Positions 5,514 through 21,028 of a stretch of DNA of 57,395 bases are shown in pieces; position 1 is the first letter of the stretch, and each line of letters starts with the position of its first letter. This stretch comes from Pseudomonadota bacterium (GTDB lineage Bacteria; Bdellovibrionota; FAC87; UBA2466). The stretch is taken from NCBI GenBank assembly GCA_043718025.1, contig JAYSWN010000139.1, positions 1 through 57,395 of the forward strand. Reading direction: 5' to 3'. The notes beneath the pieces are model-generated. The model made no database searches. It was not told the origin of the DNA and saw only the letters and a list, made by a program, of their open reading frames with translations. A program made the translations under genes and the position numbers.

Positions 5514-6668
5514 TTAAAATGATAGGCCGATGCTGGTGGCCACGCCTGAATTGGCCGCCGCTTCAAGAACCGGGCTTTCGGCCATAGAGTCGTGCTCGAC
5601 CGCGAACGAAAATGCCTCTTGCGCCGAAACCTTTCCATTCTTGTTGGTGTCGGCCGATACTGATTTTCCGTCGTGAGTCTGGTGCGCGAAAGCCGACGTC
5701 ACGTGGTACAAAAACTCGTCGAATCGTAGATCGGGGGTCGACCAGCTAAACTCACGGTTGGTCGAGGCGGCCATGGCTACGGTTTCATCGTCGGCCATCG
5801 GGCGCACGAAACCGCCACCAAAACATTGTTCGAAGATGGCGATAATGCGTTTGGTAGGTAACCCTTTCACCATGCCGGCAAACTCCGACGCTTTGATCTC
5901 ACCGTCGAACAAAACCATCGTGGTTTCGTTTTCTTTAATACTGCCGTGATCATTAACCACGATTAAAAGCTGGTCTTCAGGTTTAAGCTTCTCTTTAAGT
6001 GAGGTGAATAGATCTTTCACCGCATTCACGGTTGAGGCGTAAGCGATTCGGTTTTTTCCGCTGCCATCTAAATCACCTTTGGCCTCTTTATTGGTGCTGT
6101 CGGCGACGTGGATGTTTTCGGGAAGGTAGCCATAAACGCTCAATAGCGTTCGGTACAAAAAGGCAAAGTCATTCCAGTGCCGTTGGTTGGGATTGCCGTT
6201 GATCATGAGGGCATGAAATTTGCCCGGATTTTCGACTTTGTATTTTCCTTTATGATCCACCAGCGCAAACTTCACCTCCAACGGGTCGGTTTCAGAATCT
6301 TCAGGCTCGGACGCTACGGTTGCCTTGGTGGGCGATTTCTTTTTTAGTTGTCCTAAACCGCGCGGAGGCGATTGTAAGGCGCGTCGCAGCAATTCTTTTC
6401 CTTGATGCAGCACGCTAATAATGGCGGGGTGGCCCCAGTTGGCGCCGGGCATTAAGTCTTCGAAAATGACTTTGCTTCCTGGGGTGCTGGCGGCGGCGAG
6501 AGGAATAATCTCCCCTCCTTCAAGCTCGACGCCAGGGCTGCCGTCGAGCGAGTGGGTCTGCACCAAGGCGGTGATGTCAGTCACCTGGGCTTTCGGTTTC
6601 GTTCTGGCCTCGGCTGCGCCTAGAACGAAGAAGAAAAAGACAAGCGAGACAAAACCTCGTTGCATCAT
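5514..6668 (-). CDS. Secreted clan CD cysteine peptidase (C13 legumain/caspase-like)
   Basis: Signal peptide, catalytic-dyad motifs NDHGS and EQCFGGGF, AAST..EFSW and an EF-hand-like DTNKNGKVS. Confidence 0.75.
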   Translation of the reverse strand: MMQRGFVSLVFFFFVLGAAEARTKPKAQVTDITALVQTHSLDGSPGVELEGGEIIPLAAASTPGSKVIFEDLMPGANWGHPAIISVLHQGKELLRRALQSPPRGLGQLKKKSPTKATVASEPEDSETDPLEVKFALVDHKGKYKVENPGKFHALMINGNPNQRHWNDFAFLYRTLLSVYGYLPENIHVADSTNKEAKGDLDGSGKNRIAYASTVNAVKDLFTSLKEKLKPEDQLLIVVNDHGSIKENETTMVLFDGEIKASEFAGMVKGLPTKRIIAIFEQCFGGGFVRPMADDETVAMAASTNREFSWSTPDLRFDEFLYHVTSAFAHQTHDGKSVSADTNKNGKVSAQEAFSFAVEHDSMAESPVLEAAANSGVATSIGLSF

Positions 6669-6794
6669 GAATCCCCCCGAATCCAAATTTCACGTTAAGT
6701 AATGGCGCGGTAATGGTCTATCTGCCTGGTAACTACTCTGTAACATACGTTACCACTCGAACTATTTCAGAGGAGACGCTACACTTTATTTCTG

Positions 6795-9330: not shown

Positions 9331-9474
9331 TTGCGATCGGCGCATTCCGTCAGTCGACGGTCAGCGGCACCGCGGTGACGTGAATTGTCACCCCGAATGC
9401 GGTTTGCTAGCCAATCTTCAGACGTAGACCAATAGAAAACATAGACTTAATCAGCCCTTGTTTACGGCCGGCGC

Positions 9475-9490
9475 TGGCACCCCTCTTGCT
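9475..9490 (+). promoter_or_regulatory. Sigma-54 (-24/-12) promoter of the S8 protease
   Basis: TGGCAC-CCCTC-TTGCT with exact GG-N10-GC spacing, about 70 nt upstream of ATG 9560. Confidence 0.7.
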
Positions 9491-9559
9491 CAAGTAAATG
9501 GCGTCGCGGTTCCGCCTCAACGGCTTCCGCGAAGGTTCATGTTCAAGCGGGAGTTGTGG

Positions 9560-10855
9560 ATGCGTCGTTCGGGGCAACAAAAGACGAAAATCATCAGTTT
9601 CTTAATCCTCGTTTTCACCTTGCCGGCGGCAGCCAAGATGAACGTGGCTAAACGTTACGAGCAACTTCAATACCCTGTTCTCCCGCTAGAAATCTCCGAT
9701 CGCCTCAAAGGAAAAAAAGCATCGACCATCGTGAAAAATGACGGGGCGATTGCTAAAGACTGGGCCTTGGCCTCGATTGGCTTTTTTGAATTACTTACGC
9801 CCTCGTTTTCTCTCACCCGCGCCGGCGCCGCCGAATGTGGATCTCCGGTCGTGGTGGCGGTGGTCGATACCGGAATTGATTACGTGCATCCCGATTTAAA
9901 AAGTTTGATCTGGACCAACTCCGGTGAATCCGGCCCTTGGGAAGCCCCTGCCGAGCTGAAAGCACAAGGCTTAGCTTGCAACGACAAATCTTGTAACGGC
10001 ATTGACGATGACAATAATGGTTTTATCGACGACGTGATGGGCTGGGATTTTGTTCACGACTTACCATTGCCGTACGATACGCACGGCCATGGCACTCACA
10101 TTGCCGGTATTGTAGCTTCTACTGCGGTGGCCGGTTTAGCGGATGGGGCAAATTGCCAACGCGTTCAGATCATGCCGCTGAAGTATTACGATAACTCTGG
10201 TGCCGGTTTTAATAACTTGGCTAACACCGTTCGTGCCATCCAGTACGCAGTAAAAAACGGTGCTGCCATCATCAACTATAGCGGCGGCGGATCAGATCCT
10301 GCGGCTTCCGAAAAAGCGGCGATAGAAGACGCTAATCGCAAAGGTATTTTATTTATCGCGGCCGCCGGTAACGACGGCCATAACAACGACAGCGCGCCCT
10401 ATTACCCTGCCAGCTACGGCCTTGAAAATATTATCGGCGTGGCTTCGCTCAATAAACAAAATCAGCTTTTACCCTCGAGTAACTTTGGCAAGACGGTCCA
10501 GGTAGGAGCTCCGGGCCTTTCGATTCTTTCCACTCTGCCCGAAGGAAAATTTGGAACCATGTCGGGTACCTCGCAGGCAACTGCTTTTGTCACCGGCACC
10601 GCGGCACTGTTGGCCAATCAGCTTAAGTCAAAATCGCCAGATGATTTCAAGAAAGTTAAGGGCTGGATTCTGGAAGGAACGAAACCCCTCAAAGGTAACG
10701 AGAAGAAGCAGATTCTTTCGGCCGGCGTGTTGTCGCTGCCCAAAACGATCGTGGCGCAAAGAGACTCTTTAAAGAAGGCTTCAAAAGTATCGCCGCCGTT
10801 GTCTGGACCTGAAGTGGCCACTCGGCCCGCCTTTCGCCCTGCGAAGCTTCGGTAA
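9560..10855 (+). CDS. Secreted subtilisin-like S8 serine protease
   Basis: VDTG, HGTHIAG, AAGN and SGTSQAT catalytic motifs. Start chosen from the GGGAG RBS and the promoter position. Confidence 0.92.
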   Translation: MRRSGQQKTKIISFLILVFTLPAAAKMNVAKRYEQLQYPVLPLEISDRLKGKKASTIVKNDGAIAKDWALASIGFFELLTPSFSLTRAGAAECGSPVVVAVVDTGIDYVHPDLKSLIWTNSGESGPWEAPAELKAQGLACNDKSCNGIDDDNNGFIDDVMGWDFVHDLPLPYDTHGHGTHIAGIVASTAVAGLADGANCQRVQIMPLKYYDNSGAGFNNLANTVRAIQYAVKNGAAIINYSGGGSDPAASEKAAIEDANRKGILFIAAAGNDGHNNDSAPYYPASYGLENIIGVASLNKQNQLLPSSNFGKTVQVGAPGLSILSTLPEGKFGTMSGTSQATAFVTGTAALLANQLKSKSPDDFKKVKGWILEGTKPLKGNEKKQILSAGVLSLPKTIVAQRDSLKKASKVSPPLSGPEVATRPAFRPAKLR

Positions 10856-11055: not shown

Positions 11056-12003
11056 ATGTTTTCGCGTTGTTTAGTGATTGGTTCGTTGCTGCTCTCATTG
11101 GTTTCTTCATTAAAGGCTGATGACGGTGTAGAGGAAAAGCTTTTCACGGCCTATTCGAGAGTAATTGAAGACAGTCCCGCCGAAAAAGACGCACTCACTC
11201 CTAAGCAAATGAGGCAGTTATTCTTGGCGGCGTACAAGCACCCCGTCGCGGATGTAGACGTAATTGGAAAATACGACCCCAAAGAGATTATCGGCTTCTG
11301 TTTTGGCCGCTCAACTACAGTTCACCTTATCGCTAGACAGATGGGGCTTAAAGATTCAGCGATCCGAAAACTTTTTATAATTGGCGATCTGCGTTCCAAT
11401 CCTAAAAAACCGGAATGGCGTTTTCATGTAACGACGCTCGTGAAGGGGCCTGAAAATCAGTGGTACGCGATTGACCCAATTATGACTCCGCCCTTGGCCC
11501 CGGGCGGCGAACTCAAGGTTGAAGAGTGGATCAAGATCGTGAAGAAGACATGGGACTACAAAAAGAAGGCGTACCTTTACGTGGCTCAGGCTTCGGCAAT
11601 CACTCCTGATATTCGGAAAGACGCCGATGGTAAAACTGGCGACCACGTCGTTGAACTTTCGTTCAATCCCGAAAAACAAAAAGGCTTTAAAAAGGTGCGC
11701 TTGGCAGAGTTTGCGGCCTACGTTCCTAGCCAGCAAGCGCAGTCATTGCACTTCTTAGAGGCGTCGGCCGGCGAAACTGAAAATCGTTTTTTGTTTCTCT
11801 CGGTAACTATCGAAGGGATGGGGTTCGTTTCTTTTAATGACTACTTCGTTGAACTCTTAAAAACATTCAATAGACCTATAGCCCTTGCGCAGAGCAACGG
11901 CCTTGAGTTTACGGCTCCTCCCGCAAGCAAGATTCAGTCGCTAAAAGGTGAAGTAGCGCAACCGCCTAATCTCCATAGCTTCCGTCTTGGTACGAAGGAG
12001 TGA
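11056..12003 (+). CDS. Secreted papain-fold Cys-His-Asp protein, protein-glutaminase/deamidase-like
   Basis: Signal peptide; GFCFGR, WRFHVT and AIDP spaced like protein glutaminase GCxAR/WxYHV/IDP. Confidence 0.6.
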   Translation: MFSRCLVIGSLLLSLVSSLKADDGVEEKLFTAYSRVIEDSPAEKDALTPKQMRQLFLAAYKHPVADVDVIGKYDPKEIIGFCFGRSTTVHLIARQMGLKDSAIRKLFIIGDLRSNPKKPEWRFHVTTLVKGPENQWYAIDPIMTPPLAPGGELKVEEWIKIVKKTWDYKKKAYLYVAQASAITPDIRKDADGKTGDHVVELSFNPEKQKGFKKVRLAEFAAYVPSQQAQSLHFLEASAGETENRFLFLSVTIEGMGFVSFNDYFVELLKTFNRPIALAQSNGLEFTAPPASKIQSLKGEVAQPPNLHSFRLGTKE

Positions 12004-12006
12004 TCC

Positions 12007-13344
12007 ATGTCGTTGTGGGCAGATAAAAGCAAACGGCAGTTTTACGACTCGTGGGAGTTCATGCCCGAAGATCGGCGCCAGGAGCTAAAGCGTCGTTTCT
12101 TAAAAGACTACATTCATTTTTCGCGCGAGCTGAAGTACTACGGTGACCGCACCCAGGGCTACGATGGCAATTCGAGCCATCCACTGAAAGCCGTACCGGT
12201 GCTTAACTCCTCAGATATCCGTGACCTGTTACCGCCGATCTCTAACGCTCTGGTAACCGGCGGACTGCGTGATTACACGGTGTTTCAAAGCGGGGGGACC
12301 ACCGGATCTCCAAAATCCACTCTGTTCAGTCACGGCGAGTTGGAGGGGCTAAACCTACCCAATGCCCGTGGTTTTTATGCCTGCGGACTGGTGCCCGAAG
12401 ATCGCGTGGGCAATCTATTTGCAGTGGGCAGCCTCTACATGACCTTCGTGCACATCAATCGAATGTTGCAGCAGTACGGCTGCCAAAATTTTCCATTTTC
12501 TAATCACACGGCGGTTGATTTCGTGCACACCGTGGTCAAGCAATTTGACGTGCGGGTACTTACCGGCATTGCCAGCGTGGTGCTAAACGCACTTCGTGGC
12601 ATGAAAAAAATCGGGCTCGAAGGAATTCAGATCGAAAAAATATTTTATGGCGGCGAGCACTTTTACGAAGCAGATAAAAAAGAGATCGAAGCTACCTTCG
12701 GTACCAAAGTCATATTAGCGCCGGGTTACGGAACAGTCGATACTTGGTACCTCGGTTACCAGTGCACCCAAACTCCAACCGGGGTTTTTCATGCGCACGA
12801 CGATCAAGTCTATTTAGAAGTCGTTGACGAAAACACCGGTGATCTCACCAAGCCGGGCGAAATCGGCATGCTCTATTGCACGGCCTTTCCGCGCCGCCTC
12901 ACCCCCATAGTACGTTACCGCGTTGGGGATCGGGTGAAGTGGACCGGCGAAAGTTGCGCGTGCGGTCGCACGACCCCGCTGTTTCAACTCTTGGGGCGAG
13001 GCGATGATGTTTTGCGCATTGGCTACGACTCTATCGACTACAACGCGATTCAAGATTTAGTGCTGTCGGTTTCGGGGTTGAGTGGCACCGTGCAGATGGA
13101 AAAGCAACGCGAAGCGGGCAAAGACCGGTTTATCGTTAGGGTGGAATCGGAACTCAGTGCGGCCGATAGGCCGGCGGCCGCCGCCGAGTTGGTGCGCGCA
13201 GTATTAGATTCCCGTCCGTCGATTAGAGATTTTTTAAGCAAGGGAAGCGTTTGGCCGGTTCAAGTAGAAGTCGTGGACCCTGGGACGCTACCAAGAAATG
13301 TTCGCACGGGTAAATTAATGCGGGTTATCGATTGTATGGGGTGA
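12007..13344 (+). CDS. Phenylacetate-CoA ligase (PaaK)-family adenylating enzyme
   Basis: SGGTTGSPK, GYGTVD, RYRVGD, GRGDD and RTGK motifs. Confidence 0.9.
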   Translation: MSLWADKSKRQFYDSWEFMPEDRRQELKRRFLKDYIHFSRELKYYGDRTQGYDGNSSHPLKAVPVLNSSDIRDLLPPISNALVTGGLRDYTVFQSGGTTGSPKSTLFSHGELEGLNLPNARGFYACGLVPEDRVGNLFAVGSLYMTFVHINRMLQQYGCQNFPFSNHTAVDFVHTVVKQFDVRVLTGIASVVLNALRGMKKIGLEGIQIEKIFYGGEHFYEADKKEIEATFGTKVILAPGYGTVDTWYLGYQCTQTPTGVFHAHDDQVYLEVVDENTGDLTKPGEIGMLYCTAFPRRLTPIVRYRVGDRVKWTGESCACGRTTPLFQLLGRGDDVLRIGYDSIDYNAIQDLVLSVSGLSGTVQMEKQREAGKDRFIVRVESELSAADRPAAAAELVRAVLDSRPSIRDFLSKGSVWPVQVEVVDPGTLPRNVRTGKLMRVIDCMG

Positions 13345-13348
13345 CTAC

Positions 13349-14821
13349 GTGGTTGATGGGGTTAGCGATAAGGCGGTTTTAGAGTTTCCGGCAAGTCTGC
13401 TTCACGTCGGGCCGGTATTGGGCTACTTAGATGCCTTTTCTACTCAGTTTGGAATTGAAAGCGATCGTCGGGTGCAGCTTAGAGCCGCCACCTCGCGCGC
13501 GCTTGACCTGGTGGTGAAAAACAACGAGCACCTCTTTCCAAAACCTTCGGTTAGCGTGGGTTTTAGCGAAAACAACGGTGAGCTTTTGATTGAGGTGCTC
13601 AATCACGGGGTGCCGATCAACGTGAATAGGAATGGGCAGAGCGCCATTTTTCACGGGCTCACCCAAGGACTTGACCGGGTACTTCTTGAAAATCAGGGTC
13701 GGCAAGGGCAGTCGATAATTTTGGGGATGAAGCTTGGAGAAGCCGCCGCCCGCAAATCATTAGAAGGCAACGTGCGGGTTGCTGAGCCTTTTGATCCTGA
13801 AACGGTTGAGATTAAGATTCGGCGGCTCACCAAGGGCGACGCCAGTGCTATCGCAGAACTTTTTTTCTACGTCTACGGATACGACTACATTCACGATTTT
13901 GTCTACTACCCTGAAAAGCTTGAAAATTTAATTGAATCTGACGAGCTGATTAGCGTCGCGGCAGTCTTGCCCAACGGTCGGCTGGTGGGCCACGTGGGGC
14001 TGCGCCGATGGAACACGTCACCATTGGTTTACGAACCCTGTCTGGGGGTAGTTGACCCGGTGTTAAAATCGAGAGGGGTTTTTAGCAAAGTATTTCAGCA
14101 GGCAATGCAGGTGGTTGAAACCATTCCGATGCATTACCTATTTTTTGATTTCGTCACCAACCACGAGTTTAGCCAAAGGTTTGTCTCTCGTTACCACCCG
14201 GTTGATTTAGCCATTTTTGTGGGCTGCCAAAGTAAGGACACCCAAGCCAAGTTAGAAAAGCTTGGTATGGGCGCGGACCCAAAGAAGACCGATCGTTACA
14301 GCCTATTGTATTCCGTTCTGCCGCGCGTGGAATTCCCCTTCGGCAAAGAGGCCGAGTTGCCCCTTTGCCTAGGTGAGCAGATCGGTTTCTTGCTCGACCC
14401 GCTAGGAATTTCTTGGTACCCGGCGTCGCGGTTTTCCGTTCTGCCTTCGGGTGGCGATTACACAAGTAGTTTGCAGCCGGCGCAAAACGCGATCGTGTTT
14501 GATCTCGTCATGCCCGGGAGAAATGCCGTCGACCGAATTTTGCAGGAGTGGCAGCAGTGTTTGCGCAATGGTTATGAGTACGCGGCGGTAGATGTGCTGG
14601 TGGGCTCCCCTGGGGTGGGCAACCTCTATGACTGCCTTCAGGAGGCGGGCTTCTTTGTTGCCGGGTTTCTTCCGCATAAGATGGGAAGTCAGTTGTCGCT
14701 GCGGTTTCAAGCGGTACGCCCCACTAAACTTGCATTCGACGAAATTCGCGTCGTGAGTCCCATTGCTAACCGACTCTTGGATCTGATTCAGATTCAGTAC
14801 GAAAGGAATGCTTCATTATGA
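13349..14821 (+). CDS. RsbW/HATPase-like domain fused to GNAT-type domain(s)
   Basis: N-terminus resembles the anti-sigma HATPase_c_2 fold (LEFPA..., QLRAA...LVVKN, NHGVP, LDRV..NQGRQG). C-terminal GNAT (YGYDY, GHVGL, VVDP..KSRGV). Confidence 0.7.
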   Translation: MVDGVSDKAVLEFPASLLHVGPVLGYLDAFSTQFGIESDRRVQLRAATSRALDLVVKNNEHLFPKPSVSVGFSENNGELLIEVLNHGVPINVNRNGQSAIFHGLTQGLDRVLLENQGRQGQSIILGMKLGEAAARKSLEGNVRVAEPFDPETVEIKIRRLTKGDASAIAELFFYVYGYDYIHDFVYYPEKLENLIESDELISVAAVLPNGRLVGHVGLRRWNTSPLVYEPCLGVVDPVLKSRGVFSKVFQQAMQVVETIPMHYLFFDFVTNHEFSQRFVSRYHPVDLAIFVGCQSKDTQAKLEKLGMGADPKKTDRYSLLYSVLPRVEFPFGKEAELPLCLGEQIGFLLDPLGISWYPASRFSVLPSGGDYTSSLQPAQNAIVFDLVMPGRNAVDRILQEWQQCLRNGYEYAAVDVLVGSPGVGNLYDCLQEAGFFVAGFLPHKMGSQLSLRFQAVRPTKLAFDEIRVVSPIANRLLDLIQIQYERNASL

Positions 14822-15945
14822 ACGATTTCCAACATTCTGAAGCCATTTGCCGAGTTCCCAACCCACTCGATTGGGATGAATCAAAGAAACAGCTGATGGT
14901 GAATGCTTGTCGGGAAATGGCCGAGTTTCACAATGCCAATTCTTCCGATATTCGTTTCCTTTACCGAAAGAATCAATTTGATCCCTCATCGCTACAGACC
15001 GAAGCTGATTTGGCTCGTCTCCCTTTTGTTGGGGTAACGGCGATGAAATATTTCTTACTCACCTCAGTGCCCCACGATCAGGCGGTGTTGAAATTGACTT
15101 CAAGTGGCACGCGCGGTCAAAAAACTCAGATCTGGTTCGACCAAGCCAGTCTTGATCGCGTGCAGTCACAAATGGATGTGCTGTGGGGGCAGGAAGGTCT
15201 GGTGTCAGATCTGCCAACCAACTACTGCAATTTTATTTATGACCCGAACGATGCGCAAGACCTTGGGATAGCCTTTTCGGTAAAAAATGAAGAGCGTTTT
15301 GCCCCCATGAAAGACTCGTTCTTTGTCGTCCGCAAGAATGCGGCTGGGGTGTGGGAGTTCGATAAGCAAAAGGCCATCGACCGGTTAAGGCGGTACGAGC
15401 AAGAGGGCAGTCCGACGCGACTGTTGGGAATTCCCAGTTTTCTTTTTGAGCTGATTGAAGAGCTACAAAAACGCGGAGAAACCATTTCGCTTCCGCCCCA
15501 TAGTTGGTTGCTTACCGGCGGTGGGTGGAAGGCGGCCGAAGACAAAAGCGTAACGCGTGCCCAGTTTCGGGCGCTGGTTACCGACCTGCTAGGAATTCCG
15601 GCGGCAAATATACGCGATGGCTTTGGCATGGCTGAGCACAGCGCCCCCTACATTGAATGTGACTTCCATCGTTTCCACGTACCGGTTTTCAACCGCGTTC
15701 TAGTGCGTCACCCGGACACTCTTGAGTGTTTGTCCGACGGGCAGGTAGGGCTGCTGGAATTCATTACTCCGTTTAATGCGATGATGCCCAACTTGGCGAT
15801 TCTCTCCACCGACTTGGGTTTTTTAGATCCGGAACAATGTGGGTGCGGAAGAAAATCTCCCACGTTCACTTTGGTTGGCCGCGGCGGTCTTACTAAACAC
15901 AAAGGCTGCGCTATTACCGCCGCTGATTTGGTGAAGAGGAATTAA
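14818..15945 (+). CDS. luxE: LuxE-type acyl-protein synthetase
   Basis: LTSSGTRG, TGGGWK, DGFGMAE, ILSTDLG and C-terminal KGCA with the acylated-Cys position. Confidence 0.9.
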   Translation: MNDFQHSEAICRVPNPLDWDESKKQLMVNACREMAEFHNANSSDIRFLYRKNQFDPSSLQTEADLARLPFVGVTAMKYFLLTSVPHDQAVLKLTSSGTRGQKTQIWFDQASLDRVQSQMDVLWGQEGLVSDLPTNYCNFIYDPNDAQDLGIAFSVKNEERFAPMKDSFFVVRKNAAGVWEFDKQKAIDRLRRYEQEGSPTRLLGIPSFLFELIEELQKRGETISLPPHSWLLTGGGWKAAEDKSVTRAQFRALVTDLLGIPAANIRDGFGMAEHSAPYIECDFHRFHVPVFNRVLVRHPDTLECLSDGQVGLLEFITPFNAMMPNLAILSTDLGFLDPEQCGCGRKSPTFTLVGRGGLTKHKGCAITAADLVKRN

Positions 15946-15946
15946 C

Positions 15947-18568
15947 ATGAGCCGTCATTACTATTTTGGAGAGTGGGTTGAACGCCGGTCAGAGTTAACT
16001 CCGGACGAAGTGGCTCAACTTGCGATTAAAGGGCGCCTCGCCGCCAAAACTTTTGCCGCCTATCCGGTAGAAAAGGTTTTGACGCTACTCGATGCGGTAG
16101 GAAAAGTTTGGGCCAATCCCAATTACCCACCCCGGCTGCGCCTTGAGGCCATACTGCCGCGCACTACTGGATTTTCGGCACCGATGATCCAGTTGGGGAT
16201 GCAAGAGATTCCGTTTGTTCTCAACGCCGAGAACTTGCGAAAGAAACTGCAAGCAGAACTGGGAGGCACCGAACGAGAAGGGCAGTGGAGCTGGTCGTCC
16301 GCATCAAAGACCGCACTCTGTTTAAGCCCACTGGGCGTCATCTTACATGTGATTTCGGGCAACGTATTCTTGGTTGGCATGGGCTCACTGATCGAAGGGC
16401 TGATCACCGGTAACGTTTCAATTTTGAAACGCGCTTCGGTTGAGACTGGCGCCGAGGCAGATTTTTTAAGTGCGCTTATCGACACCATTCGCGACTTAGA
16501 TGCTGAGGGCGTGGTTAGCCGATCATTCGCCATTGTAGATTACCCCTCATCGGCAAAAGCGGTTATCGCCGCTTGGAAAAAAGAGGTCGATGGTCTCGTG
16601 GTTTGGGGAGGCGAAAAAGCGGTTAAGGCTTACCGTGACGATCTTCCGGCGCGTACCCGTTTCATCGTGTTCGGTCCGAAGATTAGTCTCGGTTTGGTGA
16701 CGCGAGCGGGATTGAGCCATTTCGGCGCGGCGAACGTGGCCGAGCGTCTGGCCGTGGAATTGGCGATTTGGGACCAAAATGCGTGTACCGCGCCGCAGGT
16801 CTGTTTCGCTGAAGGCAAAGACACGGCGCTTGCACTTGCTGCCGCCTTGGCCGAAGCGTTGGTAAAAAAGGAGGCCGAGATTCCGGCCGGACCGGCCGAC
16901 ACCAACACGGCGGTTGAAATTCAAAAAATGCGCTCGGTCGCGGAGATCGAAGAAGCTCGCGGCATCGGAAAGGTTTACGAATCAAAAGGAGGGGTCGCGT
17001 GGACGGTTATCGTTGATGAAAAAATGGCCGTGGAATCCTCACCGCTGCACCGTACGATTAGAATTATCGCTGCCGCCAACTTAGAAGCGGTTTTTAATGA
17101 AGTAGAATCGGTTCGTGGCTATTTGCAAACCGTTGGGGTGGCCGCCGCTCCCGCTGAGCTAAAAATGGTGGCCACCGAGTTGGCGCGCCGCGGGGCGGTT
17201 CGTATTTTGGAACTTGGTTTAATGTCGGGCGGAGAGATCGAAGATCCGCACGATGGCGCTTACGATCTGCCTCATTACTTCAATTTCACCTTTGCGCGTT
17301 TTGCTTCGGCTCAACGCTGGCCCGAAAATGCACCGGACACCCATTTGCAGCGCTTAATCGAAGTGGCACGAAATTCACCCTTCTACGGTGAGCGATTAAG
17401 AGGAGTCGAAATTCTTACCGGCGCCGACTTAGCAAAGATTCCCATTCTAACCCGCGACCAAATGGAAGCTAATTTGCCACCGCGTAGTGAGGGGTTAGCG
17501 ACCGGGCATTGGCAGCCAGGCGGTTACGTTTCACGCAGCGGCGGATCGACCGGCGAGCCTAAGTTTTCGATCTACGATGGGCATGATTGGGAACAGATGA
17601 TTGCCCACGCCGTGGGTGTTTTCAAAGAGGCTGGGCTTGAACGAGGCGATCGGGTGGCCAATTGTATGCTCGCCGGAGACTTGTACGGAAGCTTTGTTTC
17701 GTTTGATCACATTAATAGCCGCCTGGGCGTTCAGACCTTTGGGTTCGCCGATAAGCTAGAACCTGATCTGTTCTTAAAGATCTGGCGAGGCTTTAAGATA
17801 AATACGATTCAAGCCATTCCGGCCCTTTTGGTGCCGCTGTTGCGGGCGGCAAAAGCCAAAGACCCCACGTTCACTTTAGAAAAGGTAATGTTTGCCGGCG
17901 CGCCGCTCCAGCCCTCCGATAAAAAATGGATGCGCGACGCGCTGGGGGTCAAACAGATTGCTTCTATCATCGGGGCTAACGACGGGGGGCAGATTGGCTA
18001 CCAGTGCCGCTATTTATCCGGCGCGCTACACCATTCGGTCGATGATTTTAACTACCTTGAGGTAGTGGATGAGCAAGGCCTACCTTGTCCGACCGGAGTC
18101 GCCGGACGCTTGCTGGTGACCAGTCTGCGTAAGCTTGCCTACCCGTTGATTCGCTACGAAGTGGGCGACATGGCCAAGTTTGTGGATCACCCTTGTGAAT
18201 GTGCCAATGGGGGAAGGGTATTCGAATATTTGGGGCGTGCCGATGACACTATCTGCGTTGGCATTTTAAATTTGGCCTACCGCGATTTTCAAAGTGCGCT
18301 CGCTGAAGAATCTATCTCGGCCCTCCAGATTGTGACGGTTAACTCAAGTGGTATTGACGAAATTATTGTGAAGGTAGAGGCAGAGAATCGCGACGCCGCT
18401 TTTAGCGAGCTGCTTCGTAGCCGCGTGCTGAGCCGCGTGGCGAAGGTCGAAAAGAATATTCAAGATGGGCAAATTCGCTCGCTGATGGTGGAGGTACATC
18501 CTCTGGGGTCACTCCCGCGCAATCCTCGCAGCGGAAAGATTAAAACATTGGTAGATTTGAGGAATTAA
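15947..18568 (+). CDS. LuxC-type acyl-CoA reductase fused to a C-terminal PaaK-like ligase domain
   Basis: LuxC motifs HVISGNV, WGGEKAV, FGPKIS, DQNACTAPQ and HDG, followed by SGGSTGEPK, RYEVGD, GRADD and RSGK. Confidence 0.88.
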   Translation: MSRHYYFGEWVERRSELTPDEVAQLAIKGRLAAKTFAAYPVEKVLTLLDAVGKVWANPNYPPRLRLEAILPRTTGFSAPMIQLGMQEIPFVLNAENLRKKLQAELGGTEREGQWSWSSASKTALCLSPLGVILHVISGNVFLVGMGSLIEGLITGNVSILKRASVETGAEADFLSALIDTIRDLDAEGVVSRSFAIVDYPSSAKAVIAAWKKEVDGLVVWGGEKAVKAYRDDLPARTRFIVFGPKISLGLVTRAGLSHFGAANVAERLAVELAIWDQNACTAPQVCFAEGKDTALALAAALAEALVKKEAEIPAGPADTNTAVEIQKMRSVAEIEEARGIGKVYESKGGVAWTVIVDEKMAVESSPLHRTIRIIAAANLEAVFNEVESVRGYLQTVGVAAAPAELKMVATELARRGAVRILELGLMSGGEIEDPHDGAYDLPHYFNFTFARFASAQRWPENAPDTHLQRLIEVARNSPFYGERLRGVEILTGADLAKIPILTRDQMEANLPPRSEGLATGHWQPGGYVSRSGGSTGEPKFSIYDGHDWEQMIAHAVGVFKEAGLERGDRVANCMLAGDLYGSFVSFDHINSRLGVQTFGFADKLEPDLFLKIWRGFKINTIQAIPALLVPLLRAAKAKDPTFTLEKVMFAGAPLQPSDKKWMRDALGVKQIASIIGANDGGQIGYQCRYLSGALHHSVDDFNYLEVVDEQGLPCPTGVAGRLLVTSLRKLAYPLIRYEVGDMAKFVDHPCECANGGRVFEYLGRADDTICVGILNLAYRDFQSALAEESISALQIVTVNSSGIDEIIVKVEAENRDAAFSELLRSRVLSRVAKVEKNIQDGQIRSLMVEVHPLGSLPRNPRSGKIKTLVDLRN

Positions 18569-18572
18569 ACTC

Positions 18573-19793
18573 ATGGTCCTAAAAGAAAAAAACTTTTTCC
18601 GTTTATGGATCGGCCAGATTTTGTCGCAGTCGGGCGCTCGCATGGTGCAGATTGCCGTTTTATGGTGGGGCATCAACCAGGCTGGACCTTTGGCCGGTCG
18701 TTGGGCGGGTGGCCTTTTGGTGCTCTCGGCATTGCCGTCGCTACTATTCGTTAAGATCTTTGGTTTGCTGATTGATCGTTGGCCCAGTCGAAATATTTTA
18801 CTCTTGGCCGATATAGCTTCTGCGCTCTTCGTCGGGTTTCTGGCCCTTGGTTTTTATAAGGGCATTGTATCGACGCCATTCATCTACGCGATGGGGTTTG
18901 GACTGGCCACCTGCCAGGCATTGCTCGACCCTACCTTGAATAAATCCGTGGCACAGGTTGCCAGTGCCGAAAGCCTCGACAAGGCGGTTACGTTAGCCTC
19001 ATCCACCCAGAGTTTAGCCAGTTTCGCCGGGGCCATGTTGGGCGCAGTGCTGATCGACAAAATTGGCGTGGTGCTGACTTTGTCGCTGGCGAGCCTTGGC
19101 TACCTTATCGCTGCCGCCGCAAGTGGCGTAACGTATTTTAGGCCGGTAGCGGGGGAGGGCCCTAACGAAGAGATTAGCGAAACGCCGTGGCAGGTTTTGA
19201 ATCATTATCCATTTTTGAAAAAGTTGTTGTTCGGCTTTGGCTTCGTAAATTTTTTTGGAACCCCCACCTTACTGGTGCTACCGCTCTACGTTAAGCGCGT
19301 GCTGGAAATGAAGGCGAGCGATCTCGGGATGCTCGAAGGGGCTTTGTGGTTGGGCCTTATCTGCGGAACTTGGTGTTCGAGATCCATTAAATACCAGGGA
19401 TCGATTCTCCACGTTGCTTTTATCTGTCTCGCATTTTTGGGATCGGCATTCGCTCTACCCGCGCTCGTGCCGGGCTTTGCGATTTCACTGGGGTGTCTCA
19501 CCGTGGCCGGATTGGCCCTGGGTATAAATAACGCCAAGTTTTTTGTCCTCTTTCAAAACCAGGTTGCGGACCGGGAAAAGGGGAGATTCTTTGCGATTCT
19601 TTCGGCGATTGTAGGATTTAGCTTTCCGGTAGCCTATCTGTTCTTTGGCTTAATGGTGGACCTTGTTCCGGTTACCTCAGTAATGGTGGCTCAGGGATTA
19701 GGGGTAATTGGCGTGGCATTTTACTTTCTATTGCTGCAGGATCAAGGCGGTCGCCGCAGAAAGAATTCGTCACTGGTTTTGGGGGAAGTATGA
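18573..19793 (+). CDS. MFS transporter (DHA3/macrolide-efflux-like exporter)
   Basis: NFFRLWIGQILS, GLLIDRW, about 12 hydrophobic segments, KGRFF. Confidence 0.9.
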   Translation: MVLKEKNFFRLWIGQILSQSGARMVQIAVLWWGINQAGPLAGRWAGGLLVLSALPSLLFVKIFGLLIDRWPSRNILLLADIASALFVGFLALGFYKGIVSTPFIYAMGFGLATCQALLDPTLNKSVAQVASAESLDKAVTLASSTQSLASFAGAMLGAVLIDKIGVVLTLSLASLGYLIAAAASGVTYFRPVAGEGPNEEISETPWQVLNHYPFLKKLLFGFGFVNFFGTPTLLVLPLYVKRVLEMKASDLGMLEGALWLGLICGTWCSRSIKYQGSILHVAFICLAFLGSAFALPALVPGFAISLGCLTVAGLALGINNAKFFVLFQNQVADREKGRFFAILSAIVGFSFPVAYLFFGLMVDLVPVTSVMVAQGLGVIGVAFYFLLLQDQGGRRRKNSSLVLGEV

Positions 19794-21028
19794 ATCTGAA
19801 TTTGGGCTTTCGTCGGGCCATGCCGCGAGATGCATTTGGTTTGATGCAACTCTACCAATTGGCTAATCCCAAGGCTTCGGAAAAATCTGATGAGATGATG
19901 CTGTATCAAGATCGGCTAAGCGTGGAGATCGCCGGCGATCAAAATATCTGGCTTATTGGCGAGCGCGGATCTGAAATTGTGCTTTACCTTGGCATGCAGG
20001 TAGATCGCATCAATCGTTTGGCCAAAATCACCCGGGTTGCTTTTCATCCCGATATTTCAACCGCCGAAGATCTGTTTGAAGAGGCTATGCCGCAACTTCT
20101 CACCTATCTGGCGGAAAAAGGCGTAGAGGTCGTTTACACCACCACTCGTACCATTACGTTGGCGCAACAGGAGATCACTCTACGTTTGGGCTTCAAGATG
20201 TTGGGGGTGTTTCCCAACGCCTTTGGCGGCGACCCACTTAAGATCAATGGCCTGTCTGCTTACTTTTTCGATGGGGTGCTTAAAAACCGGAAAAAAGCCC
20301 GCTTTTCTCTTCATCCGAATGTTGCGCCGTACTATGAAAAAGTGCGTCAGGCATGCGGACTTGAAGAGCTACCGGTGGCCAAGCCAAAAGTGCTTGAAAA
20401 ATTCGTCGGCCATCCCCTACCGGAGCTCGAAATAATTCACGCCCCTAAATTCGTTACGAGCCGTTTTGAAAAGCTACGCGGACGCCAAGCACTCAGCGTT
20501 CATTTCTATCCGTTTCATGAGCCAAATGTTCTGATCACCGATCCGGATCAGAAAATTGAGATCTTCGTGAAGATGGTTCCGGAACAACGTTTTGCCGCTA
20601 TCCTTGGAGAACGCCTCGACATTTATTTGAACCCGGTCGAGTTGTACCAAAAAATTGCGGTGCTGCTCAATCAGCACGGAATTACTTACCTTGAAGTGAT
20701 CAACGACGCAGGGGATTTGGACGGCACGCAAGCCATAATAGACGCCGGCTTTCTTCCTTGCGCCTATTTTCCCTGCTTTAAAAAGCTCGGGGAAGGCCGT
20801 TGGGACTACACCGTGTTTTCATGCTCATTCGAGAAACCCTTACCCCTGTCGGTGAGTCAAACCGCGCCGATTCATCCTGCGTATTTGGATTTCTTAAGAG
20901 AGTACCGCCGCCAAGAGGCCGAGAAATATTTGGCGGCCTTCTCCCCGACTCCAGCGTTGGAACCAATGGTGCCTCATTTGCGTTTGGTAACCGACGCAAA
21001 GCCCCCCACCATCGTTACGTTGCACTAG
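19790..21028 (+). CDS. GNAT-fold protein (probably tandem GNAT)
   Basis: FRRAMPRD start and two GNAT-end motifs (LRLGFKMLGVFP, IDAGFLPCAYFP). ATGA overlap with the MFS gene. Confidence 0.65.
   Translation: MNLNLGFRRAMPRDAFGLMQLYQLANPKASEKSDEMMLYQDRLSVEIAGDQNIWLIGERGSEIVLYLGMQVDRINRLAKITRVAFHPDISTAEDLFEEAMPQLLTYLAEKGVEVVYTTTRTITLAQQEITLRLGFKMLGVFPNAFGGDPLKINGLSAYFFDGVLKNRKKARFSLHPNVAPYYEKVRQACGLEELPVAKPKVLEKFVGHPLPELEIIHAPKFVTSRFEKLRGRQALSVHFYPFHEPNVLITDPDQKIEIFVKMVPEQRFAAILGERLDIYLNPVELYQKIAVLLNQHGITYLEVINDAGDLDGTQAIIDAGFLPCAYFPCFKKLGEGRWDYTVFSCSFEKPLPLSVSQTAPIHPAYLDFLREYRRQEAEKYLAAFSPTPALEPMVPHLRLVTDAKPPTIVTLH

Follow-up and report, generated by a model that had tools for sequence, protein, structure and literature searches.

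A seven-gene Bdellovibrionota operon, likely a distant relative of the leupeptin operon with a changed gene order and added genes

What might an operon produce that combines LuxE- and LuxC-type enzymes with two PaaK-like ligases, two GNAT-fold proteins and an exporter, and has no luciferase gene beside it? We addressed this question for the seven genes at positions 11,056–21,028 of contig JAYSWN010000139.1 (assembly GCA_043718025.1; Bdellovibrionota, GTDB lineage FAC87, UBA2466). The whole analysed stretch of 57,395 nucleotides is referred to here as the window. An initial annotation had proposed a pathway unrelated to light emission that activates acids, forms an amide, reduces an acid to an aldehyde or alcohol and exports the product without a carrier protein. 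It regarded this pathway as undescribed, unless the same architecture had already been characterised. The proposed chemistry is supported by analogy with known systems. The claim of novelty did not survive, because the leupeptin operon is an already characterised system of the same architecture.

Gene set and kinship with the leupeptin operon

The leupeptin operon consists of a major facilitator superfamily (MFS) gene and leupABCD, and is found in Klebsiella michiganensis/oxytoca, Photorhabdus and Xenorhabdus (Li et al. 2020, doi 10.1002/anie.202005506, as described in papers citing it). The pathway does not involve a non-ribosomal peptide synthetase (NRPS) and uses separate AMP-dependent ligases and a reductase, as reported in one citing paper (PMC11212599, citing Li et al. 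2020). A plasmid search with the LuxC–PaaK fusion protein of the window returned 185 matching records, nine of which covered at least 80% of the protein; one of these nine served to retrieve nine named loci, including one from K. michiganensis (L038). A published leupA primer (PMC8283571) matched exactly inside the LuxE gene of L038, which identifies L038 as a real leup locus.

All four leup proteins of L038 had counterparts in the window. LuxE was 33% identical to LeupA (E = 4.7e-71), the fusion protein was 25% identical to LeupB over residues 86–872 (E = 1.2e-59), and PaaK1 was 28–29% identical to LeupC (E = 5e-31 to 9e-35). Residues 155–281 of GNAT1 were 28% identical to LeupD (4.5e-12), and HHalign gave 97.8% for this pair (E = 1.2e-12, 163 columns). 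Both operons therefore contain a LuxE-type synthetase, a LuxC–PaaK fusion, a standalone PaaK-like ligase, a LeupD-type GNAT and an adjacent MFS gene. They also have in common the catalytic cysteines, three adenylating domains, one reductase, one GNAT with an intact coenzyme A (CoA) loop, and the absence of a carrier protein among the open reading frames (ORFs) scanned to 32.5 kb. The two cysteines, which the annotation had already recognised, were kept in every aligned homologue (LuxE Cys364 in 41/41; LuxC Cys280, within a DQNAC motif, in 32/32). In the fusion protein, a Pfam/NCBIfam scan placed the LuxC domain (PF05893) at residues 38–441 and the PaaK-like domain at residues 466–872.

The genes are co-oriented and tightly packed, as had been annotated, with intergenic distances of 3, 4, −4, 1, 4 and −4 nt (Table 1). 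Their GC content resembled that of the remainder of the window, and promoter and terminator scans gave counts at chance level (7 vs 7.0 and 14 vs 16.0, respectively). The annotation had suggested looking for the same gene set in other genomes, and we found it conserved. In the initial search of 25 family genomes, close homologues of the fusion protein occurred in 10, a number that includes this genome and one partial match, and the gene order was the same. The order was invariant in all 41 loci carrying the GNAT1 type, a census that contains some repeated loci and related genomes that do not count as independent. All seven genes were present in 11 of these loci, and most of the others stopped at contig edges. 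Since all 41 loci share one order, the grouping of the genes is not due to chance. In leup notation this order is C-D-A-B-MFS, as far as each locus reaches, in contrast to MFS-A-B-C-D in the leupeptin operon; the blocks are swapped, with A-B and C-D adjacency kept. Genes, homologies, catalytic residues, order and linkage were all observed directly. Taken together, these comparisons indicate that the locus is likely related at a distance to the leupABCD operon, with its blocks rearranged and genes added, and the architecture is in that sense already known.

LuxE cysteine-thioester and LuxC reductase chemistry is also shared with luxCDABE, and both proteins of the window belong to these families and have intact cysteines. 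We therefore asked whether the operon supplies an aldehyde to a bacterial luciferase encoded elsewhere, which we regard as extremely improbable. As annotated, no gene of the luxA/B/D, acyl carrier protein, polyketide synthase or NRPS families was found among the 26 ORFs scanned (window positions 751–32,452). The genome, which is 92% complete, contained no luxA–luxB pair and gave no LuxD match. Its one luciferase-like gene, on contig C119, was unpaired, followed a guaA-like gene, and scored 60.7 bits against PF00296 with no NCBIfam match at E ≤ 1e-8. Furthermore, LuxE and LuxC scored 103 and 109 bits, far short of the Lux cut-offs (550 and 750), and LuxC is fused here to a ligase. Nor did any luxAB attract notice in the homologous loci, which had no scan aimed at it.

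Table 1. Genes of the operon, with positions in the window.
Gene	Position	Strand	Length (aa)	Assignment	Evidence
g0	11056..12003	+	315	Predicted secreted papain-fold (protein-glutaminase-like, PF18626) enzyme; leads the operon	PF18626 E 6.4e-4; triad Cys82-His124-Asp140
PaaK1	12007..13344	+	445	Standalone adenylating ligase of leup type (LeupC counterpart by architecture)	AMP-binding/PaaK-like matches
GNAT1	13349..14821	+	490	N-terminal RsbW/HATPase-fold domain (~1-130) and LeupD-like GNAT	AlphaFold model, structure search, HHalign
LuxE	14818..15945	+	375	LuxE-type acyl-protein synthetase, Cys364 (LeupA counterpart)	PF04443 4e-39
LuxC-PaaK fusion	15947..18568	+	873	LuxC-type reductase (Cys280) fused to second PaaK-like ligase (LeupB counterpart)	PF05893 2.6e-77; AMP-binding
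MFS	18573..19793	+	406	MFS exporter, DHA3/EntS/Mef type	TIGR00900 6.5e-27
GNAT2	19790..21028	+	412	Tandem-GNAT-like fold	AlphaFold model pLDDT 88; GNAT structure matches

Proposed product and distance from leupeptin

By analogy with leupeptin, the operon probably makes and exports an N-acyl short peptide aldehyde without a carrier protein, and the exported aldehyde would likely act as a serine/cysteine protease inhibitor. In the proposed route, GNAT1 would take the acyl group of an acyl-CoA and cap an amino acid with it, and the two PaaK-like domains would each adenylate the growing acid and add one amino acid. LuxE would adenylate the final carboxyl group and hold the acyl on Cys364; LuxC would accept it on Cys280 and, using NAD(P)H, carry out the reduction, and the MFS protein would export the resulting aldehyde. 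Of the remaining parts, GNAT2 is likely a CoA-independent accessory with a scaffolding or product-binding role, the RsbW-fold domain of GNAT1 is likely regulatory, and g0 is likely a secreted cysteine enzyme that would be restrained by the aldehyde or would trim it. Every chemical step here is modelled on leupeptin and on LuxE/LuxC chemistry; the step order, the choice of residues and the parts played by the three additions are likewise inferred.

Several results weigh against so close a parallel. Identities to the leup proteins were low (25–33%), and the MFS protein gave no BLAST match at E ≤ 0.1 to the Klebsiella leup MFS, being of a different MFS family; the counterpart in a Streptomyces leup-like cluster was 31% identical to it. 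LuxE proteins were placed in a quick tree of 44 rows after removal of redundant or partial loci (17 name prefixes), and here the window type formed a 17-row clade (100% support in the SH-like approximate likelihood-ratio test, SH-aLRT) outside the clade that holds LeupA. The latter comprised 22 rows (99% SH-aLRT), among them two clusters on Streptomyces plasmids as well as 14 loci that belong to other families of the phylum, and most of the sampled clusters from those families were far nearer to Leup (LeupA, 46–53%). Because the window lineage lies outside the Leup clade, the residues of leupeptin cannot be transferred to its product. Thus the operon is a system of the leupABCD kind, yet neither its gene order nor its clade is that of a leup orthologue.

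The ligases showed a similar divergence. A quick tree of 66 domain rows resolved four deep clades, all of which share motifs that differ from those of true PaaK; the SGGTTG loop and the YGTVD motif were common to PaaK1 and the leup ligases. In a second tree, of 28 of the 66 domains, pairing of the fused domains with each other received only 86/70 support, and two alternative topologies were not rejected (p-AU 0.25 and 0.17), so step-by-step orthology with LeupB/LeupC cannot be claimed. In addition, residues near the ligase pockets differed from those of LeupB/C and between clades, and no Asp aligned with a clear amino-binding position, leaving amino-acid substrates without sequence support. 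Assignment of the two ligases as true phenylacetate-CoA ligase (PaaK) was considered separately and rejected, with TIGR02155 scores of 96.6 and 72.6 bits vs a cut-off of 646 and no paa genes among the neighbours scanned.

The same enzyme logic could instead serve other chemistry, yielding a non-peptidic or single-residue acyl/aryl amide aldehyde or alcohol as a signal, which is nearest to the idea of the initial annotation. The position outside the Leup clade and the divergent pockets would fit such a product, as would the RsbW-fold domain, which suggests signalling. So would two kinds of variant locus: trimmed operons that lack PaaK1 and g0 (L058 and L064), and a near-identical pair (L048/L049) in which a solute-binding protein and a histidine kinase take the place of the MFS protein and GNAT2. 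However, the sole characterised system with this enzyme set, within the literature found, makes peptide aldehydes, the LeupD-like GNAT is retained, and PaaK equivalog scores reached only 70–120 bits vs cut-offs of 646–700. We therefore regard a non-peptidic signal as unlikely, and prefer the peptide aldehyde.

Within the literature found, the only characterised carrier-free synthesis of peptide aldehydes is that of leupeptin in Gammaproteobacteria. The core idea is known and no standing view is overturned. This deep sister lineage, whose ligase pockets differ, is a plausible source of new protease-inhibitor warheads. The phylum likely consists largely of bacterial predators, in which the timing of protease action could matter.

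Three additions to the leupeptin set

Compared with the leupeptin operon, the window adds a domain of RsbW fold to GNAT1, a further GNAT without the CoA loop, and a leading gene for a predicted secreted papain-fold protein. None of the three was described in the parts of the literature searched. Neither GNAT gave a Pfam match at E ≤ 0.01, with only a faint GNAT_ablB match for GNAT2 (E = 0.0044); AlphaFold models and structure searches confirmed both folds.

The model of GNAT1 had a pLDDT of 87.5, and a Foldseek search returned RsbW matches (TMt 0.89–0.92) as well as GNATs. The annotation had taken both GNATs for ordinary acyl transferases, which the sequence supports for GNAT1 and not for GNAT2. 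In GNAT1 the [KRQ]xxG CoA loop was intact and was kept in 108 of 115 homologues, so that GNAT1 is predicted to be a LeupD-type GNAT able to bind acyl-CoA. In its RsbW-fold domain the N-x-G-R-x-G-Q motif was nearly invariant. The canonical Bergerat fold binds ATP through an N-box Asn and a G1-box Asp. Here, Asn85 replaces the G1-box Asp (Asn in 47/49 rows) and the N-box was poorly conserved. These changes make kinase activity doubtful, and it is a better guess that the domain senses or binds something.

GNAT2 matched GNATs best in structure searches (Z 10–12). The canonical GNAT loop R/Q-x-x-G-x-A/G binds the pyrophosphate of CoA. The in-operon GNAT2 proteins formed a 16-row clade (100% support, stem 1.73) in which this loop was found in 0/16 rows, vs 12/22 relatives by a strict pattern or 21/22 by a relaxed pattern defined after inspecting the rows; a first strict pattern, now superseded, had given 11/22 outside the clade by missing variant loops. 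As the loop is lost from the clade, GNAT2 is likely unable to bind CoA. The C-terminal half was well conserved, which suggests that the protein has been kept where a LeupD-type GNAT is present while likely no longer binding CoA there. It could serve as a scaffold, a product-binding protein or a condensation enzyme fed by a thioester. For the last role there is a precedent in the condensation domain of Ebony, which works without CoA. In the structure search this domain came 32nd (Z 10.3), with many GNATs tied, and it is a precedent rather than a specific match. The transferase domain of Ebony is reported to make beta-alanyl amines (PMC10510592).

A recent duplication was considered as the origin of GNAT2 and ruled out, with HHalign values of 6.3% for GNAT1–GNAT2 and 1.5% for GNAT2–LeupD. 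Homologues of GNAT2 lie in uncharacterised single-GNAT leup-like clusters, on Streptomyces plasmids (L029 and L030) and in other families of the phylum (e.g. L026, L101, L102, L104–L107 and L109–L112). These clusters share LuxE, the LuxC–PaaK fusion and PaaK with the window, and their sole GNAT is homologous to GNAT2 (~26%). Unlike GNAT2, that GNAT keeps its CoA loop; GNAT1 and g0 are absent, and the LuxE proteins group with LeupA. An extra GNAT2-family paralogue with a CoA loop was also seen near three loci of the window type (L018:944-2332, L020:1409-2653 and L062:16520-17719).

The two GNATs could also be purely regulatory. Pat-type acetyltransferases acetylate the catalytic lysine of ligases, and RsbW-GNAT1 might do the same here, with the LuxE/LuxC core meeting a housekeeping need through reduction of a short or fatty acid. 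HATPase–GNAT fusions do form a broader family in other phyla, according to the Atlas, and GNAT2 lacks the CoA loop. GNAT1, however, carries LeupD-specific motifs, an exporter is coupled to the operon, and full-length LuxC is patchy across the family and the phylum, unlike a housekeeping gene. We consider this explanation very unlikely.

The annotation had counted the gene at 11,056 among the seven, correctly, and left its role blank; we predict a secreted papain-fold protein, g0. Its N-terminus is hydrophobic and signal-like, and the gene ends 3 nt before PaaK1. The match of g0 to PF18626 (20.3 bits) was below the cut-off of 25, and no solved structural relative was found by sequence (best E = 0.32). 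Among the operon-linked homologues, scores ranged from 25.9 to 35.8 bits, and three of the four scanned were above the cut-off. In the Atlas, g0 matched a PF18626 cluster best (0.96), at a recognition level short of the tool's threshold, and the nearest Atlas clusters were commonest in Bdellovibrionota. The triad was invariant in 17 aligned rows. With the protein-glutaminase-like PF18626 family g0 shares this triad and the signal-like N-terminus, and it differs in forming a distinct subclade tied to the operon.

This tie was evident from both position and phylogeny. g0 was first in the operon in 16 of the 24 loci with informative upstream DNA, including a genome of another family (L113), and a further partial copy was present in L043. 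The wider g0 family occurred in 60/301 genomes, mostly unlinked to the operon, and the nine best g0 matches were all operon-linked. All 16 linked copies fell within one 18-row clade (99%), whose other two members were a paralogue on contig C63 of the same genome as the window and a gene running off a 2-kb contig; four other likely paralogues, without a locus, were excluded from this tree. As eight informative loci lacked g0, it is not needed for synthesis.

A role for g0 as target or in processing is attractive, though unproven, given that cysteine and serine proteases are inhibited by peptide aldehydes; common regulation of two secreted functions would account for the linkage equally well. 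If the link is functional, it would name a natural target of such an aldehyde. A more elaborate form of this idea is an enzyme-plus-inhibitor operon of predatory-type bacteria, in which secreted g0 is paired with a cognate aldehyde inhibitor or substrate. GNAT2 would then be a CoA-independent condensation enzyme taking the acyl from an enzyme-bound thioester, an extra step relative to leupeptin that would give a new aldehyde scaffold, and an RsbW-like sensor would exert control. We consider this full scheme quite unlikely.

The C63 paralogue of g0 lies in another possible biosynthetic cluster (G000:C63:3028-14616, L151), beside genes for a SolA-like oxidase, a PLP decarboxylase, a DdaF-like ATP-grasp ligase, a MATE exporter, GNAT-like ORFs and a MetRS-like protein that carries an additional N-terminal part.

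Distribution and related clusters

The genome (4.14 Mb in 234 contigs) carried a single copy each of luxE, the fusion gene, GNAT1 and GNAT2. Named GNAT1 homologues included proteins from metagenome-assembled genomes of Elusimicrobiota, Riflebacteria and Bdellovibrionales, and a metagenome scan with the GNAT1 alignment found 29 loci with GC contents of 42–69%. Full-length LuxC (E ≤ 1e-50) was present in 57/301 genomes of the phylum, most of them in family f10, and in 54 cases lay in frames of at least 700 aa, the size of the fusion (both counts tallied by hand from a table). Such clusters are therefore common in this phylum. Neither the seven-gene variant nor leup-like clusters in Bdellovibrionota were found in the literature searched, in which the homologue survey of Li et al. 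(2020) was seen only through other papers and may cover the lineage. The antiSMASH 8 article (PMC12230676), in the portions seen of its main text, does not mention leupeptin.

The loci L101–L120 comprised at least four cluster layouts, with genomes G279 and G254 each carrying two different ones; in L103 the operon lacked the MFS gene. Five loci (L108, L115, L116, L118 and L120) represented further deep leup-like lineages outside both the Leup and window clades of the LuxE tree. Three of these lacked a standalone ligase, and two had a distant HATPase–GNAT with a neighbouring ORF of ~760–770 aa.

Plasmid clusters of Streptomyces (L031:7773-12498) and Burkholderia (L032:8056-12536) contained an ATP-grasp-like ORF, a ligase and an MFS gene without LuxE. 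Their ligase was 34–38% identical to the fused PaaK domain of the window and lay behind an N-terminal part without a family assignment. A leup-like locus of Rosenbergiella (L034:7001-8926) was broken, with a shortened LeupB-like ORF followed only by the tail of a ligase.

Directly upstream of the operon lies a subtilase (S8) gene (window positions 9458–10,855), which was likewise present in G002 (L016) and not in the other loci checked; a C13-like peptidase gene lies further upstream (5514–6686). The TIGR02147 family is expanded in Bdellovibrionota, and the genome had 11 matches to it; these and the Atlas clusters nearest to g0 suggest that the host likely belongs to this phylum. The genome also holds a second small-molecule cluster (G000:C138:844-6727, L152), which begins with an aspartate kinase gene and the pair of 3-amino-4-hydroxybenzoate synthase genes (BagB/BagC-like). 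A hydrolase-like ORF and a BagE/FevW-like ligase (1.3e-109) follow, and the contig end cuts the cluster just after the start of an AvaA6-like diazotase (7.7e-53).

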